DNA from: a virus
Taxonomy: Duplodnaviria; Heunggongvirae; Uroviricota; Caudoviricetes
Direction: 5' to 3' (one strand)
Virus record (IMG/VR): IMGVR_UViG_2675903654_000001
Location: 1 to 5,832 of that record
Length of the DNA stretch: 5,832 nucleotides
Shown here: one piece after another, positions 1 to 5,832 of the stretch
Numbering within the stretch: the first letter of the stretch is position 1
How the letters are laid out: the number at the start of each line of letters is the position of its first letter
Made by a program: the position numbers and the translations under genes
Notes under the pieces: generated by a model
What the model saw: the letters and a program-made list of their open reading frames with translations, nothing else
Databases searched by the model: none
What the model was told of the DNA's origin: nothing

Positions 1-5
1 CTGGG

Positions 6-662
6 TTATCGCTCGCCACGGGAATATCTACGGCAGCAAGCCAGTAATGGGTTAAGTGATAACAGGTGTCTGGAAATATAGGGGCAAATCCACTCCCTGA
101 TGCAGTTGTATGTCTTTAGTTTCAGTCGTTCTCTTGTAACTACTATTTTCGGTGCTCTTGTTGGTGTTACTGGATTTTGAGATATACGTCCTTCAACAAT
201 GGCCTCGCGGAACATATCAGATAACACAGAACGCATTGATCCTGCCATCGTGTTTTTCCCTCCTTCAATCCACAAATCAAGAAACTCGGCAATATGGCGA
301 GTGGTTATTTCTGTCAGTAAAACCCCTCCTAATTTTTCTTTTATTGTCTCCAGTTGATTTACCCGAATTTTATAAGTATTTCTGGACACTTTTCTCCTTA
401 TAAGAATCGTTTTGTAACGTTCAATCCAGTCTGCCATAGTAAATGAGTCGAACCCTTTTAGTTTTTCAATTAAGGCAGCAGGAGAGTAGTTTTTGTATAT
501 ATAATGATTTGCTTCAATTGCCTGCGCTACTGCATCTCTTCTTGAAATTTTACCTAGTGTAAATTCTTCTTTCGTCAGAGGGTTGCGCCAGTAATATGCT
601 TTGTCCCTCCTTCGATATGTTAAGTTTTTAGGCAAATTGGGATCGTATTTTTTCCGCTGCAT
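6..662 (-). CDS. intR: Phage integrase, lambda Int family, N-terminal fragment only (arm-binding and core-binding regions; premature stop, catalytic domain absent); probable truncated allele or pseudogene
   Basis: Minus-strand ORF, ATG at 662-660, TAA at 8-6, 218 codons. SD GGAGAAG lies 7 nt upstream of the ATG, inside the xis 3' end. Residues 1 to about 185 align with the N-terminal part of lambda Int as recalled from memory (LPxNL, YYxRxPxTxKEFxLG, AIxAN, WxxRYxxIL, ITTxxIA, EGK, RSxLSDxFREAIxEG, TRAxK). No tyrosine-recombinase catalytic region follows before the stop, and the other two minus frames at 1-120 show no integrase-like sequence. Symbol is by synteny with Rac. Confidence 0.8.
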   Translation of the reverse strand: MQRKKYDPNLPKNLTYRRRDKAYYWRNPLTKEEFTLGKISRRDAVAQAIEANHYIYKNYSPAALIEKLKGFDSFTMADWIERYKTILIRRKVSRNTYKIRVNQLETIKEKLGGVLLTEITTRHIAEFLDLWIEGGKNTMAGSMRSVLSDMFREAIVEGRISQNPVTPTRAPKIVVTRERLKLKTYNCIREWICPYISRHLLSLNPLLACCRRYSRGER

Positions 663-909
663 GTTTTAACTTCTCCAGTAACGGACTGTCTCTCCCTTGT
701 CGCCCATTAGGCTGATGGTGTGTTATATCGGTATCAACCTTATTTGGGTTGATATAGAAAGCTTCCGGAACCACCCTGTAACTCCTCCCGTGTAGTTCAG
801 GTGCAGGATAAATGTTTCCATTCCTTGCCCATCGTCTCAGCGTTGATATTGATGGTGGGTTATCCGGATATCTGAGTTTTCCCCACGTTTTGAGTGTCAC
901 AAGATTCAT
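628..909 (-). CDS. xisR: Excisionase (Xis/AlpA-like DNA-binding protein)
   Basis: Minus-strand ORF directly upstream of int, overlapping the int start by 35 nt as in lambda xis-int. Sequence MNLVTLKTWGKLRYPDNPPSISTLRRWARNGNIYPAPELHGRSY resembles excisionases. Start placed at ATG 909 because SD AGAGG is 7 nt upstream; the ORF-track ATG at 915 is only 1 nt from that SD. The length (93 aa) is longer than I expect for this family, so the 3' extent is uncertain. Confidence 0.7.
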   Translation of the reverse strand: MNLVTLKTWGKLRYPDNPPSISTLRRWARNGNIYPAPELHGRSYRVVPEAFYINPNKVDTDITHHQPNGRQGRDSPLLEKLKHAAEKIRSQFA

Positions 910-931
910 TGCCATACCTCTTACGATATGA

Positions 932-960
932 CCGCCAGTAAATATACAGAATACTGGCGG
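932..960. promoter_or_regulatory. Perfect 9-bp inverted repeat with 11-bp spacer upstream of xis (candidate protein-binding site or RNA stem-loop in the xis leader)
   Basis: CCGCCAGTA (932-940), spacer AATATACAGAA, TACTGGCGG (952-960). Lies about 15 nt upstream of the xis SD on the minus-strand mRNA. No U-run follows in either direction, so it is not a canonical intrinsic terminator. Confidence 0.3.
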
Positions 961-1015
961 GTGTGGTTGATTTTTAATAATCAGCTATGAAGTTATAATT
1001 TGTATATAATGCAAC

Positions 1016-1204
1016 TCACGAGGACAGAAGTTTCTCGCAATTAAAATTTATCAGCTTTACTTTCTGCTCTCTGGACACGCCTGCTTCTTTTTTCCCTGAG
1101 AGCATTTTTTCGCATTCTGATTTCGTTAATTTAGATTTTGAATATCTTGTCCAGTTAGTAGGAGTGCCACCTTCTTTTTCAATAGTGGCAGTTATTTTAT
1201 ACAT
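1016..1204 (-). CDS. ydaC: Small prophage protein of unknown function (YdaC-like)
   Basis: Minus-strand ORF between xis and ralR; stop TGA at 1018-1016. Start chosen at ATG 1204 (MYKITATIEKEGG...) because a strong SD GGAGGTG sits 5 nt upstream. This ATG overlaps the ralR stop (GTTCATGTATAA), suggesting translational coupling. In-frame alternatives at 1216 and 1276 lack an SD. Identity is by position and memory of Rac gene order; exact length uncertain. Confidence 0.55.
   Translation of the reverse strand: MYKITATIEKEGGTPTNWTRYSKSKLTKSECEKMLSGKKEAGVSREQKVKLINFNCEKLLSS
1017..1200 (+). ncRNA. Candidate cis-antisense small RNA opposite ydaC and the ralR 3' end (possibly the RalA antitoxin sRNA); boundaries approximate
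   Basis: Plus-strand consensus -10 hexamers TATAAT at 994-999 and 1005-1010 (weak -35) in the xis-ydaC gap. A weak terminator-like structure lies downstream: 6-bp stem TGCCAC/GTGGCA (1165-1170 / 1185-1190), 14-nt loop, then GTTATTTTAT (1191-1200). The implied RNA is about 180 nt. A roughly 179-nt RalA antisense antitoxin next to ralR in Rac is known, but I do not reliably recall which end of ralR it overlaps. Confidence 0.2.
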
Positions 1205-1403
1205 GAACACCTCCATTATTATTTCCAGTAGTTCGTTTATTCCATCTTTCGAGTGCTTCTTTTTCACTTCCACCATAGCCAGTTCGGGATTCGCATTCGT
1301 TGCATTTTGCCCGGTAATACCCTGAAATTGCTTTCACCGTAACAGATGGACAACCACAAAACGGACATGGTTTAACATCGTCATATCTCATAATTTTTGT
1401 CAT
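1197..1403 (-). CDS. ralR: Restriction-alleviation protein Lar/RalR (also described as the DNase toxin of the RalR/RalA type I toxin-antitoxin pair); Cys4 zinc-ribbon
   Basis: Minus-strand ORF; the protein ...MRYDDVKPCPFCGCPSVTVKAISGYYRAKCNECESRTGYGGSEKEALERWNKRTTGNNNGGVHV matches Rac RalR/Lar as I recall it, with CPFC and CNEC pairs. Stop TAA at 1199-1197. Start ambiguous: ATG 1403 (MTKIM..., weak GAGA 8 nt upstream) or ATG 1391 (MRYDD..., gives the 64 aa I recall for K-12 but has no SD). Confidence 0.85.
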   Translation of the reverse strand: MTKIMRYDDVKPCPFCGCPSVTVKAISGYYRAKCNECESRTGYGGSEKEALERWNKRTTGNNNGGVHV

Positions 1404-1419
1404 AAAAACTGTCTCACGT

Positions 1420-1440
1420 TGGCGGTGCATTACACCGCCA
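1420..1440. other. Stem-loop in the recT-ralR intergenic spacer
   Basis: TGGCGGTG (1420-1427), loop CATTA, CACCGCCA (1433-1440): 8-bp stem, 5-nt loop, between the recT stop (1448) and the ralR start. On the sense mRNA it sits just upstream of the ralR ribosome-binding region. Confidence 0.3.
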
Positions 1441-1447
1441 GGCTGAA

Positions 1448-2257
1448 TTATTCTTCTGAATTATCGATTACACTGTATTCCCCGGTTAATACAGAGGAGT
1501 CTGCCGGATCGATTGTCAGTGGTTCCTTTTCATCCATTGATACTGCACGCTGGATTTCAATTGAGACAGGCAGGTATTTAAACAGGCGACGAATAGCCGT
1601 TTTTTTTGCCATTTCTTCCCAGTGAGTTACCCATGGCCCGTTATTACCAGCCTTACTCTGGCTGCGCACCAGTTCAATCTGTTTGCGCGTCATAACTTCA
1701 AACTGAGTCCCTCCGTCTTTCAGTCTTGCGACAGCATAGACGTGGGTCACTGGTGCATCTTCGTTTTCTCCCGGGCGGTGTATTAACTTTTCATCAAGGC
1801 CAAATTCAAAACTAAACTCGTCACCTTCACGGACAACACGGGCTGACAGGCTGGCGATTTGACCAGAACGGCGAGCCAGATCAATCATGCCGCGATAACC
1901 AATGATTAGCTGAACGTTCTTTTTACCGCTCTTTTCGTTTTTATTACCAAAAGGCAGTAAATATGCGTGGCCGAGGGCGCTACCTGGCTCAAGGCCGAGC
2001 TGTGAACACTGAACGATCGCACTGACAAAACTCATGGTGTCACAGTTTCCTAGCGCCGGAACCTTACGAATTTCTGTGGTGGCGATACGTATCATTCGTT
2101 CAGCCGTCATATGGCGTGGGAGAGCTGCTGCCAGTTGCTCTTTCATTGATGGCTGATTAATAAAGCTGATCACGTCGTTATTTTTTACTGCTGCTGGTGC
2201 ACGGTTTCCCTGAGTTTTTTGCAGATCGGCTTTTGCGATTGGTGGTTGCTTAGTCAT
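1448..2257 (-). CDS. recT: RecT single-strand annealing protein (recombinase, RecT/Redbeta family)
   Basis: Minus-strand ORF, 269 aa from ATG 2257 to TAA 1450-1448. Protein [35 protein letters not shown]...[10 protein letters not shown] matches E. coli RecT as recalled. SD AAGGA is 8 nt upstream. The start overlaps the recE 3' end (GCAAATGACTAA). The ORF-track start at 2314 is a 19-codon upstream extension with no SD. Confidence 0.95.
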
Positions 2258-4904
2258 TTGCATATTCCTTAGCCCAGCGGGGCAGTGATAACGTCTTAAT
2301 AGCTGGCCATTCATCGGTATTGAGGCAGTCAGCCAGGGTTCGCAGATTGCGGTGATATTCCAGCTGACCTGCCAGTTTTGCTTCTTCGCCCATCATGAAA
2401 ATTTCAACCGGATAACGTCCGCATTCAATAGTTGTGCTGGCAACCAGAAAAACGAAAGTTGGCTGCACTCCAAACTGTGCTTCATAACCGTCACTGTAGA
2501 ATGCATCCTGAACGTGATAGCGGTAGTCGTAATAAGCGGTTTTGAATCGTTGAATATCCGCCGTAGTTTTCACGTCCATGATCCAGTGAAATTCAGGGAT
2601 AATTTTGTCCGGACGGCACCGACACAAAATTCCTGTTTCAGGATCTTCCCAGTAAATTGATGATTCAGCGTGTCCGGCGCTTTCAACAAGCCATTGCCCC
2701 AGCGGCAAAGCCATAACGCTTTGATACATGAGTTCAATTTTCCGGCCTTCTTCCGCAGTGATAACCGTTTTTCCTGTGCTTGCGCATTCCATCAGAAACG
2801 CTTTCTCTTCTTCTTTTCCGGCGTTTGTACGGCGGTTAAATTCAGGTGCTACGATAAAGCGGTTACTGAATTCTTCCGGTTCAAGTACCCGGCAGTGGAA
2901 AGCGGTTCCTAAATCGAGCGTTTTTGTCTTTGTGGTGTCCACGGGGGCATTTTTACGCCACAAATACAGTGCCGGAGTATCAGCAATGTCGTCGAGCTGA
3001 GACTTACTGACACCGGGACCCGCGTGGTAATTCTCATTCGAAATTCCGTAATAAATACCTGGCTCTATGTCTTCTACGATTACGGGATCTGCGACTTCGC
3101 CAGTTTCATCACTGCAATCGCGATGCGGATCGCTGCCAGCATTCTCATTGTGCGGATGTTCAGCGCCTTCCATTTCCTCCGGATCATTTTCCTTAGCTTC
3201 AACCTGATTCTCTTCACCGAATGTTTCCTGGTATGTTGCGTCGCCCATCACCGCACCACAGTCAGGGCAGTTATCCCCGCCAGTCTGACCGCAGGCATTG
3301 CAGACTATTTCCGGTTCCTGTTGCACTACTGGCTCAGGTTGTTTCACATCCGGGCTGGTTTTTTCCGTTTCTGGCGTGTTTTGTTCCGTTTCTGGCTGGT
3401 TCTGGTACACAGAATCGCGAGTCTGGATCCCCTTAACCCATTTCGGATCGTTCGGGTCGCTAATTCCGTCAACAAATTCACCACGTGATGCAGCAAGCAA
3501 TTTATCGGCATCGACAGGATTTTTTGATGGAATGTTTTTCCGGGCTTCATGGAGTTCTGCCCGCAGTTTCTGATATTTCGCATCAACAGAATTTACCTGT
3601 GACTGAGCATCCAGCGGCTGCGTGTCCTGATGATGTTCAGTTGCGTCCGGTTCCATTGTTTCAGCCTCTCCCTGTTCATCTGCCGTTGTTCCAGTTGGTT
3701 GTGGTTTTTCTTCATCATCCTGTTTTCCTTCTTCTGTTACACGCTGCGGCATCGGGGCAGAGGAGCGACCGCAGGCAATATCCACGATTTCCGGATCAGG
3801 GTTGGCATGATCGGTTTCAGTCAGTACTTTGTTCAGATATTCAGTGACGTGCGCGGGGATGACCTCGATCCCAATTGGTGCTTCTTTCACGGACGCAACC
3901 ACGATGGCGCGTGAATAATCCAGCCCGCCAGGCATGGTGATGAATTTGTCGCGGAAAACAGAAAAGGGCGGTTTATTTTCAGCGATAATTTCCTCGACAC
4001 GTTTAGCGTGTGCCGGATGAAGGTTATAAATGTCCACGTCCATTGAACGAGCCAGTACGCCAGTGGCTACGTCGCGCGCCAGTGACGTCAGATCGTGAAC
4101 GAAACCTTCGCCGCGATCGGTGAGGTTCCCGCCGCCAGCATTAGCGCCGGAAGCCGTGCGCGTGATGCGTGAAACACGATTTCCTTTCATCCACTCTTTT
4201 GTCAGCAGACCACGATCGGTGTAGTCTGCGTCCAGGTATGCTTCGAAAAAAGCAGTCATCAGCCCCAGGCTTGAATTGCCTGGATTAGGGAAAACTCTGT
4301 CAGTATCACGCACCAGTTTGTGGAGATCGCGAATTTCCAGCGGGTCGAGCAGGCTGGTTTTGTGGGAAACAGCCAGGGCAGTAACAGCTGGTAGTTCTTC
4401 AGCTCGTGCAATGTGTAATGCCTGGAGTTTGTCGCGTGAAACGTGCGTTACCGGTTTTTCGCTGCCGTGTTGAGCAAGCCAGCGAATGGGCAGCTCCTGA
4501 CCGGAAATCGGGAGTAGCATATTCTCCTCAATCTCCGTCATGTCTTCGCCATTAACATTGGTATTGTCAGTGCTGGCTGGTTTGTCCTGCGCAGAGGATG
4601 AGGGCGCGATAAATACCATTGTGATGCCATCTTCCCCGCCTTTTTTGTAACGGTTGCAGAATTCCGTATCAAATACGCCTTCTGGTGGAAGGTCATCAAC
4701 AACGGGCAAATTGACGCGAACAGGTTTTTTAAAGTCATCTTCATCGTAGCCAGCATCGTCAATCGCAACAGCACCACGGGATATGGCAATGGATAATTTT
4801 TTCGCTTCAACCCAGTAGAAACCGCCTTTAATACCGAGACGTTTTCTTACTTTGTCATTTTTTGCTTCGTAATACAGTGGGTAAACTTGTTTATCGGTGC
4901 TCAT
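2250..4904 (-). CDS. recE: RecE exonuclease VIII (5'->3' dsDNA exonuclease; C-terminal PD-(D/E)xK-type nuclease domain, long acidic N-terminal region)
   Basis: Minus-strand ORF, 884 aa from ATG 4904 to TAA 2252-2250. SD GAGG is 9 nt upstream of the ATG; the ORF-track start at 4919 is a TTG five codons further up. C-terminal third (...[16 protein letters not shown]...[21 protein letters not shown]...[11 protein letters not shown]) matches the RecE nuclease domain as recalled, including a D-x-K motif in IMDVK. Forms the classic recE-recT overlapping pair. Confidence 0.93.
3363..3404. repeat. Imperfect 21-bp tandem duplication inside recE, encoding a repeated heptapeptide (QNQPETE / QNTPETE)
   Basis: Unit 1 at 3363-3383 (TTCCGTTTCTGGCGTGTTTTG) and unit 2 at 3384-3404 (TTCCGTTTCTGGCTGGTTCTG): first 13 nt identical, 17 of 21 overall. 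In frame, within the P/E/Q/T-rich linker of the RecE N-terminal region. Confidence 0.6.
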
Positions 4905-4973
4905 TGTTTTTAACCTCAACTCAGATTAAAATTACTGCGAGTGATGAATAAATGTCCCAGGTTCTTCACTCAG

Positions 4974-5004
4974 GCCTGCACAGTGTGCAGGCTTTCTTTT
5001 TTTT
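4974..5004 (+). terminator. Rho-independent terminator-like hairpin plus T-run, oriented for plus-strand (antisense) transcription, in the racC-recE intergenic region
   Basis: GCCTGCAC(a g t)GTGCAGGC is a perfect 8-bp GC-rich stem at 4974-4981 / 4985-4992, followed by TTTCTTTTTTTT (4993-5004). On the minus (sense) strand the hairpin is preceded by an A-run and not followed by a U-run, so it would terminate only plus-strand transcripts. Confidence 0.4.
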
Positions 5005-5010
5005 CAGATT

Positions 5011-5277
5011 TCACCCTTTGATTTCATTGCAATCAGAGTTGCCAGAAATTCGGCTTTTTTCTGCGGGCAGATTCTTTCCGATATGCACCAGGCACATTTT
5101 TTTGATGCCTTCGTTAAGTGTTTTAACGTTGCCTGATGGACCGTCGATATCAACCACAGTGAAAGGGGTTTCTTTATTTTCTGTTTTAATCACGTAGCCA
5201 ATACGCTTTCCTTCCAGGCTGACTTCGTGAACAATGTCATCAGTAGTAACAACAGTGGCTTCATAACTGGTAATCAT
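5011..5277 (-). CDS. racC: Rac prophage protein RacC (function unknown)
   Basis: Minus-strand ORF MITSYEATVVTTDDIVHEVSLEGKRIGYVIKTENKETPFTVVDIDGPSGNVKTLNEGIKKMCLVHIGKNLPAEK..., stop TGA at 5013-5011. Strong SD TAAGGAG is 7 nt upstream of ATG 5277. The ORF-track start at 5325 adds 16 codons with no SD. Sits immediately upstream of recE as racC does in Rac. Confidence 0.8.
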   Translation of the reverse strand: MITSYEATVVTTDDIVHEVSLEGKRIGYVIKTENKETPFTVVDIDGPSGNVKTLNEGIKKMCLVHIGKNLPAEKSRISGNSDCNEIKG

Positions 5278-5351
5278 GTTTTTCTCCTTAATTAAGGTTG
5301 AGCGAATCCCTGCCATTGCTGGCATAAATTCAGTTTCGGATAGTCAGTTAA

Positions 5352-5522
5352 TTAAAGTTCGTGTGCCATCTGGTCTTTTTCGGCACAGATTTCACTACAA
5401 TATTTTTTCATTTCCGTCGTTGGTATAACTCCACGCATGAAATGAAGTGGTCTTGTAATGATTTTGCTTTCTTCAATTTCTTTATTGCAAAGGTGATAAG
5501 CACATTTTATTTTCTTAGTCAT
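5352..5522 (-). CDS. ydaE: Small Cys4 (zinc-ribbon-like) prophage protein, YdaE-like, function unknown
   Basis: Not in the ORF track; found by manual translation of the minus strand: [56 protein letters not shown], 56 aa, ATG at 5522-5520, TAA at 5354-5352. SD GGAG is 8 nt upstream. The start overlaps the kilR stop (TGGTAATGACT). Two cysteine pairs (C-x4-C and C-x3-C). Position between kilR and racC fits ydaE. Confidence 0.7.
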   Translation of the reverse strand: MTKKIKCAYHLCNKEIEESKIITRPLHFMRGVIPTTEMKKYCSEICAEKDQMAHEL

Positions 5523-5743
5523 TACCATGACTCCGCCTTTACAGGTAAACCATCACGACCGAGGAAGACTCTAATCATGCAGTCAGAAATGCATGTTTTT
5601 GTAGTCAGGCTACGAATATAAAGTTTTCGCTTTTTAATATTGTTTGCCGAGGCGATATATGTCCGACCTTCATGAAGAACATAATCGCCAGGGGTCACAC
5701 ACTGACGTGGTATTTCATCAGTTCCGAAGTGATGAGCAATCAT
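5522..5743 (-). CDS. kilR: KilR, prophage-encoded cell-division (FtsZ) inhibitor
   Basis: Minus-strand [76 protein letters not shown], 73 aa, matching Rac KilR as recalled. SD GGAGA is 5 nt upstream of ATG 5743; the ORF-track ATG at 5755 has no SD. Stop TAA at 5524-5522. Confidence 0.85.
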
Positions 5744-5832
5744 AATTATCTCCATTTTTACAAATGAATTTTGTCGATGCGGTGCCTGGTGCCTCCAGGT
5801 GACGTTAACCAGTTAACAATTAACGCCGGATA

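Follow-up and report, generated by a model that had tools for sequence, protein, structure and literature searches.

Phage lambda encodes OOP, a 77-nucleotide (nt) antisense RNA transcribed from pO that complements the 3' end of cII as well as the cII-O junction and promotes RNase III cleavage of the cII mRNA, and in phage P22 the 68–69-nt antisense RNA sar, transcribed from the arc-ant intercistronic region, represses ant. In the early-left region of lambda itself, the RNA LPR1 (PreS) has the orientation of the operon and its end at tL2a; it is produced during the lytic cycle, binds to Hfq and acts on host genes in trans (bioRxiv 10.1101/2024.10.31.621285). The locus considered here lies in a stretch of 5,832 nt from a tailed phage (Caudoviricetes; IMG/VR record IMGVR_UViG_2675903654_000001, positions 1 to 5,832), hereafter the window, which corresponds to the early-left region of a Rac-like prophage with every gene on the minus strand. 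A candidate promoter, a predicted RNA and an intrinsic terminator are all contained in the 106-base-pair (bp) spacer between racC and recE, on the strand opposite to the operon. The reading that we favour, with a probability of about 0.5, is that this spacer is an independent non-coding RNA gene of about 60 nt whose product damps recE and recT by cis-antisense action.

The RecE and RecT proteins of Rac form a classical cryptic recombination pathway, from which RecET recombineering originated, and its silence is only loosely understood. In a gene table, sbcA is given as a synonym of both racC and recE, which associates the classical activating mutations with these two genes. An abundant, constitutively made antisense RNA at the racC-recE junction is a testable candidate for post-transcriptional or interference control of recET.

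A one-way terminator and a promoter-like sequence in the racC-recE spacer

The features of the spacer and of the two genes that border it are as follows.

2250-4904, minus strand: recE (exodeoxyribonuclease VIII), 884 amino acids (aa), ATG at 4904
4904-4909, plus strand: -35-like hexamer TTGTTT, the first T of which complements the A of the recE ATG
4905-5010, minus strand: racC-recE intercistronic spacer of the early-left operon, 106 bp, the presumed cis target
4927-4932, plus strand: -10 hexamer TAAAAT, 17 nt from the -35 hexamer
4972-4994, plus strand: intrinsic terminator hairpin of 10 pairs, 6 of them G-C, with loop AGT
4995-5004, plus strand: U tract (TCTTTTTTTT) after the stem, within a T-rich run that overall spans 4993-5004
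5011-5277, minus strand: racC, 88 aa, stop codon at 5011-5013

The initial annotation of the window, made by reading the sequence, had placed in this spacer, for which it gave the length that we confirm (4905-5010), a plus-strand terminator made of an 8-bp GC stem at 4974-4992 and a run with T in 11 of 12 positions, and the structure is present at exactly these coordinates. The core stem, GCCTGCAC/GTGCAGGC, is lengthened to 10 pairs (4972-4994) by G·U and A-U pairs, and the T run is TTTCTTTTTTTT at 4993-5004. Under a strict criterion (8 or more stem pairs, no fewer than 6 of them G-C, a loop of 3–8 nt, and T in at least 7 of 8 positions), the spacer hairpin was the sole terminator on either strand of the window, and dinucleotide-preserving shuffles yielded none on either strand (0 of 300); the spacer terminator is far above chance. 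Read on the minus strand, the same hairpin has an A run before it and CUGAGUGAAG instead of a U run after it, and is thus a one-way terminator that would act on plus-strand transcription only. A loose scan returned 6 sites in the window vs 6.6 in shuffles. Two weaker plus-strand terminator-like hairpins, at 2925-2949 (antisense to recE) and 5576-5595 (antisense to kilR), appeared only in this loose scan with its chance-level yield.

The two hexamers with their 17-bp spacing were likewise found where they had been placed. The combination TTGTTT-17-TAAAAT matches the consensus at 8 of 12 positions, and as the threshold of our promoter scan was 9 of 12, it was not called by it; the two strands of the window together have 14 sites that are just as good. 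By sequence alone the promoter is not beyond chance, and its support comes from conservation and from the mapping of the K-12 start described below. The earlier judgement that the terminator was the solid part of the prediction and the promoter call the weak one is borne out by these numbers (0 of 300 shuffles against 14 equal promoter sites). The promoter block is nearly invariant across 138 related loci. As the -35 hexamer overlaps the recE start codon, and the block also holds the recE Shine-Dalgarno (SD) sequence GAGG (plus-strand CCTC at 4913-4916), its conservation is by itself no specific sign of a promoter. The K-12 block, taken from the recE ATG as far as the -10 hexamer, is identical to that of the window except for one additional T, which makes its hexamer spacer 18 nt vs 17. 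The T run between the recE ATG and the SD (4907-4911) is one T shorter in the window than in most surveyed loci, a few variants of which carry substitutions or an insertion; the shorter run gives the 17-nt instead of the 18-nt hexamer spacer and also reduces the distance from the SD to the ATG of recE.

Transcript ends mapped in Escherichia coli K-12

Both ends of an orthologous transcript have been mapped in K-12. In file 1 of Adams et al. 2021 (PMC7815308), a plus-strand 3' end obtained by Term-seq is given at MG1655 position 1417486 and classified as 'antisense racC', with read counts of 185,664 and 146,140 (PMC7815308). This file holds one sheet per growth condition, and racC and the prefix 14174 each occur three times in it, two of the rows being listed; of the approximately 77 rows that make up the first page of the table, only 6 exceed the end at 1417486 in read count. 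The sequence printed with it, with ...CATAGCCTGCGCCATACGCAGGCTATTTCT before and TTCAGATTTC after the marked position, puts the 3' end 5 nt past the K-12 hairpin, within the U tract.

The 5' end is provided by Romero et al. 2014 (PMC4681348), who report a forward start by differential RNA sequencing (dRNA-seq) at U00096.2 position 1415447. It belongs to their class I, defined by enrichment with tobacco acid pyrophosphatase (TAP) together with a step rise in coverage (PMC4681348). Their Table S5, in which t29 is a candidate small RNA, contains a matching row (t29; recE-racC; <- -> <-; 1415447-1415590; Raghavan et al. 2011) without database letters (PMC4681348). The offset of 1976 between U00096.2 and U00096.3, set by means of fnrS (start 1407153 in the old numbering vs 1409129 in NC_000913.3), places the K-12 start at G 1417423 (U00096.3), 8 nt after TAAAAT. 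From this dRNA-seq start to the Term-seq end at 1417486, the K-12 RNA measures 64 nt, vs 143 nt for t29 in the Romero list.

The predicted transcription unit therefore exists in K-12, with its ends where they had been predicted, and is catalogued yet uncharacterised. The initial annotation had proposed a plus-strand RNA of 55–65 nt antisense to the recE leader, for which the 64-nt K-12 ortholog provides support, and had named dRNA-seq and Term-seq as the check, expecting the 5' end at around 4940 and the 3' end at around 5000-5005; ends of both kinds lie at the orthologous K-12 positions. What this establishes is the existence of the unit for the K-12 allele. The body of that RNA differs from the body in the window, and the two have only promoter block, terminator stem and architecture in common.

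The MG1655 RefSeq annotation includes ralA and kilS and holds no RNA gene in the racC-recE spacer, and we flag this gene as missing from both the K-12 reference annotation and Rfam. No entry with the prefix 14173 or 14174 (in U00096.3-style coordinates) was found in the Cappable-seq and SMRT-Cappable-seq supplements, a result that is uninformative as these files may use older coordinates, and the promoter sequence was unmatched among the entries listed in an EDL933 Cappable-seq supplement. Full-text literature searches for t29 and for racC in combination with small RNA (sRNA) returned nothing relevant.

The RNA predicted in the window

By homology, the window would encode on its plus strand a non-coding RNA of about 60 nt running from about 4940 to about 5000, which we refer to as allele A. 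Its ends were transferred from K-12 by placing the start 8 nt after the -10 hexamer and the 3' end 5 nt after the stem.

4940-5000, plus strand: predicted RNA, allele A; start at 4939-4941, end at 4999-5003, both ends transferred from K-12
4939-4971, plus strand: predicted 5' hairpin, with stem GAGUGA.GAAU / GUUC.UCACUC and an 11-nt loop, beginning at about +1

The position corresponding to the start, about 4940, is an A, with G at 4939 and 4941. Compared with K-12, the U tract of the window is longer and the hexamer spacer is 17 vs 18 nt, both of which are favourable changes. A plus-strand stretch of 76 nt is predicted to fold into two adjacent hairpins at -26.6 kcal/mol (z = -3.8), and in the predicted folds the 5' end of the RNA is paired and no single-stranded stretch separates the hairpins.

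Searches of Rfam with the whole window and with the spacer gave no family reaching its threshold at the spacer. OmrA-B (RF00079) scored 22.5 bits against a threshold of 40, in a match that rests on the terminator, and the other sRNA families with a match there, MicC included, remained at or below 17 bits and were likewise driven by the terminator; none of them was retained. A small protein encoded on the plus strand was also rejected: no plus-strand open reading frame (ORF) in the spacer terminates before the terminator, those starting at 4941 and 4952 read through it stop-free, and they are missing in the K-12-type allele. A type I toxin-antitoxin pair was discarded as well, as the spacer holds no minus-strand ORF of at least 20 aa; all that was found there were the recE and racC ends and an ORF internal to racC. 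Complementarity of the RNA to neighbouring prophage DNA extended over 9–12 nt, vs 9–11 nt typical for shuffled RNA.

Replacement of the RNA body between unchanged flanks

To survey the locus, a promoter-core pattern search was combined with loci fetched via RacC and RecE, giving 138 loci with 41 distinct 160-nt stretches. These loci carry two alleles of the RNA body, A (the window type) and B (the K-12 type). Of 5426 complete E. coli genomes, 268 have A and 1594 have B, such that one or the other is present in about one third of them. Between the two alleles, identity is 34/35 and 34/37 in the flanks, 20/43 in the 5' part and 22/33 in the terminator. When the window (4934-4999) is aligned with K-12 (locus L002, 4036-4108), divergence is limited almost exactly to the transcribed body, the flanks being 92–97% identical. 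With a 5' part at 20/43 between near-identical flanks, the window carries a different allele and not the t29 RNA itself. Such a body-only replacement between unchanged flanks is an unusual pattern that needs explanation. Alleles A and B both fold into a 5' hairpin that starts at +1 and adjoins the terminator. In a second sample based on the RecE C-terminus, and hence unbiased by the promoter pattern, 55 loci had allele B, 16 had allele A and 8 were of other kinds; 3 of these 8 lacked both racC and the RNA unit, and the rest were rearranged or had mis-called starts.

A third arrangement, allele C, was found in 66 of the 5426 genomes and in the Shiga toxin (Stx) phages POCJ13, 75/02 Stx, PhiR5_2 and phiSTEC1589, in which another gene than racC precedes a recE-type exonuclease. 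Its promoter, TTGTAT-18-TAGAAT, lies on the antisense strand at the same distance from the recE ATG as that of Rac. The body, of about 70 nt and unrelated in sequence, folds again into a 5' hairpin and a terminator (z = -4.2), and the T run stops just short of the upstream gene's stop codon. POCJ13 and Rac agree in the start codon with the -35 hexamer, in the SD and at 5 of 6 positions within the -10 hexamer, and differ at 7 of the 8 positions that separate the SD from the -10 hexamer. The spacer upstream of a Qin-like recE has neither a terminator nor a good -10 hexamer, so that promoter and terminator are jointly present in A, B and C and jointly absent there. Alleles A, B and C thus have in common their place, orientation, promoter geometry and two-hairpin fold, and not the sequence of the body; no conserved single-stranded seed common to the three bodies was found.

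The RNA alleles reassort with at least three types of recE N-terminus, implying recombination within the conserved promoter and ribosome-binding-site block. The N-terminal segment of the 884-aa RecE of the window is unrelated to that of K-12 RecE (866 aa).

Stem variation and strand preference

Sixteen distinct variants of the terminator were compared. Across them, 96.9% of cells are paired when the stem is read as plus-strand RNA vs 92.5% as minus-strand RNA, and without the loop-closing pair the values become 100% vs 93%. All stem substitutions outside the loop-closing pair leave a G·U pair when read as plus-strand RNA, and C·A when read as minus-strand RNA. In four pairs both sides have changed, for example from A-U to G-C or from A-U to U-A, the core pairs are invariant and the loops are hypervariable. 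The 5' hairpin shows two natural C-to-U variants opposite G, in which the pair is retained only in the plus-strand RNA, and the stem of allele C has one U·G pair that is C-G in one variant.

The loops of the allele A terminator (window 4982-4984) read AGT, GTT, ACT, ACA, GTC or TGA. That of allele B occurs in both orientations, CCATA and TATGG (loci L142 and L161), which suggests, as judged from these sequences, an inversion of the hairpin tip.

A putative cis-antisense RNA at the racC-recE junction

As the RNA lies wholly inside the racC-recE junction and opposes the early-left operon, cis-antisense action would be expected of it. Gene order and the lack of a minus-strand terminator or promoter in the spacer suggest that racC and recE are co-transcribed. 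The sigma-70-type promoter TTGTTT-17-TAAAAT would start a plus-strand transcript at about 4940, which would fold into the 5' hairpin (4939-4971) and then into the terminator (4972-4994) with its U tract, and be released at about 5000. This RNA could pair in cis with early-left transcripts that continue past racC into recE; the resulting perfect duplex, about 60 bp long, would be a typical substrate of RNase III, and the convergent promoter could also interfere with oncoming early-left transcription. The predicted outcome is lowered expression of recE and recT while the prophage is repressed. We infer that the window allele is transcribed as in K-12 and acts in cis with a negative effect on recE, in a manner similar to OOP and sar. 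Since complementarity to a cis target is automatic, a cis-antisense role predicts a conserved position and fold without conserved sequence, and the conservation of position, orientation and fold without sequence in turn argues that function most likely rests on antisense pairing or on transcription across the junction, and not on a seed.

Several points weigh against this proposal. The transcript evidence comes from the K-12 RNA and not from allele A, and co-transcription of racC and recE, formation of the duplex and the effect on recE are predictions. The stretch that the RNA complements spans about -36 to -96, counted from the recE ATG, and ends about 20 nt short of the SD; as the RNA reaches neither the SD nor the start codon of recE, a direct block of translation is unlikely. 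Inclusion of the recE SD and start codon in the promoter block may account for some of its conservation. As the compared sequences are close relatives, the stem changes amount to about 6 independent events in favour of the plus strand and 1 against; with so few independent changes, the plus-strand preference is suggestive and not proven. Finally, K-12 makes the RNA abundantly during ordinary growth, a state in which little sense transcript is expected, and a job elsewhere would also fit this.

Such a job could be that of an Hfq- or ProQ-dependent sRNA that base-pairs in trans and regulates mRNAs of the host or of other phages, its position opposite the recE leader being incidental. The build of the RNA (5' hairpin, terminator, long U tail) is like that of many sRNAs, its abundance in K-12 during normal growth and its weak full-length plus-strand matches to several sRNA models (the best being OmrA-B with 22.5 bits) fit this idea, and the prophage sRNAs HnrS and lambda LPR1 do act in trans. 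We nevertheless consider it unlikely, as every Rfam match is below its gathering score and rests on the terminator, alleles A, B and C have no seed sequence in common, the 5' end is paired with no single-stranded stretch between the hairpins, and complementarity to the neighbouring DNA is no better than that of shuffled RNA. The string racC is also absent from the supplements derived from RIL-seq (ligation and sequencing of interacting RNAs) in Bar et al. 2021, which is a weak negative.

It seems rather unlikely, too, that the terminator serves mainly as an insulator that stops antisense transcription from recE or upstream from entering racC, ydaE and kilR, the short RNA being a functionless by-product of a fortuitous promoter. 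The one-directional orientation of the terminator against the operon and the weak class II plus-strand starts inside K-12 recE (U00096.2 1414535 and 1415269) would suit an insulator, and hexamers as good as these are common in the AT-rich DNA of the window. However, the start, which lies 64 nt upstream of the mapped 3' end, is of class I and not background, allele C keeps the -10 hexamer and its spacing despite differing flanking bases, and promoter and terminator occur together in A, B and C and are both missing in one spacer. Moreover, a 5' hairpin is kept in all three alleles, which insulation would not need.

An improbable alternative is that the hairpins act on the sense mRNA, as a processing site, a 3' stabiliser of the racC mRNA or a recE leader fold that sequesters the SD, with the plus-strand features being incidental. 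The hairpins can form in the sense RNA, for which a 126-nt leader gives z = -3.7, and the complement of the -10 region can form an A/U-rich stem of 9 bp with the recE SD. The G·U pairs of the stems, those of the consensus sequences as well as those of natural variants, nonetheless become C·A in the sense RNA (93% vs 100% paired outside the loop-closing pair), the T run on the plus strand is kept in all alleles, and the ends of the K-12 plus-strand RNA have been mapped experimentally. The SD-sequestering fold was also considered as the cause of the invariant block and rejected, being weak (z = -1.6 and -1.0) and missing in allele C. A chance juxtaposition of promoter- and terminator-like sequences without a role, which the non-significance of the hexamers alone would allow, is extremely improbable in view of the absence of such a terminator from 300 shuffles, the compensated stem changes and hypervariable loops, the mapped K-12 RNA ends, and the same arrangement with unrelated sequence in Stx phages.

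Returning to the cis-antisense reading, an extension of it that we regard as a long shot starts from the observation that A, B and C are replaced exactly over the transcribed segment, with the promoter and the end of racC unchanged. The body might be a swappable specificity cassette, by which the RNA of a resident prophage would silence recE and recT only on transcripts of the same allele, those of related incoming or co-resident phages included, and some sbcA mutations might disable the RNA. If this were true, it would represent RNA-based, allele-specific control of phage recombination functions.

Prophage setting and further features of the window

Other features relevant to the setting of the spacer are the following.

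1448-2314, minus strand: recT
1020-1198, plus strand: RalA, the type I antitoxin sRNA of Rac (RF02694), full-length match of 219 bits against a gathering score of 170

The genes ydaE and kilR lie further to the right of racC in the window. The closest complete E. coli genome, that of strain AH19B041, is 99.4% identical to the window and has its prophage adjoining copD and yebY; ralR and the racC homolog of this strain are annotated as frameshifted pseudogenes (L001 2472-2659 and 6306-6580). Identity of the window to the Rac prophage of K-12 is only about 87%, from the start of recE through racC. RalA is antisense to the ydaC/ralR region and is closely preceded by a perfect TATAAT (about 994-999).

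The motif GAATCCCTGCCATTGCTGGCA, upstream of racC in the window (5300-5330), recurs immediately 5' of recE in phages that lack racC, and would thereby mark the edges of a racC insertion or deletion. At the right end of the window, positions 5738-5832 of the minus strand gave a partial match to STnc100 (RF02076) with 21.4 bits against a gathering score of 47, ending at the edge of the window. This match contains UCACCUGGAGGCACCAGGCACC and overlaps the start of kilR and its proximal leader; it is not KilS, which in K-12 lies 176–273 nt upstream of kilR. Rac-like racC-recE sequence with 93–96% identity was also present in records titled Actinobacillus phage vB_Apl-pPE4, Candidatus Nanosynbacter metagenome-assembled genome (MAG) and Proteobacteria MAG (PP818812.1; loci L006 and L010), where it is probably E. 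coli DNA contamination or the result of mislabelling.

Comparison with known systems

Several described phage and prophage RNAs can be set aside as identities for the window RNA. LPR1 shares with it the early-left region of a lambdoid phage and an end at an intrinsic terminator, but it is sense-oriented and ends at tL2a. HnrS is located among late genes, the Pas sRNAs lie in late or lysis regions, and KilS is upstream of kilR, outside the spacer. RalA belongs to the same prophage, is encoded on the same strand and opposes the same operon; unlike the window RNA it measures 179 nt and has the ralR toxin mRNA as its pairing partner, whereas the spacer has no toxin-like ORF, and the two are unrelated in sequence.

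The antisense RNAs sar and OOP are closer in design. Like sar, the window RNA is a unit of about 60–70 nt within the intercistronic spacer of a phage operon and runs in the opposite direction; sar covers the ribosome-binding site of ant, whereas the window RNA ends about 20 nt before the SD of recE, and there is no sequence relation. With OOP it has in common the small size, its own promoter, an intrinsic terminator, a position inside and against a lambdoid early operon and complementarity to an inter-gene junction. OOP differs in belonging to the early-right operon and in having a lysogeny regulator and not a recombination gene as its target, and again the sequences are unrelated; dependence on RNase III has been shown for OOP and is a prediction for the window RNA.

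The nearest relative is t29 of K-12, which agrees with the window RNA in spacer, strand, promoter block, homologous terminator stem, two-hairpin build and approximate length, and differs in having the transcribed body of another allele. This K-12 ortholog has already been detected in three high-throughput studies. New, as far as the literature examined shows, are the distinct allele carried by the window, the coincidence of the divergence with the transcript, and the positional analogue with unrelated sequence in Stx phages.

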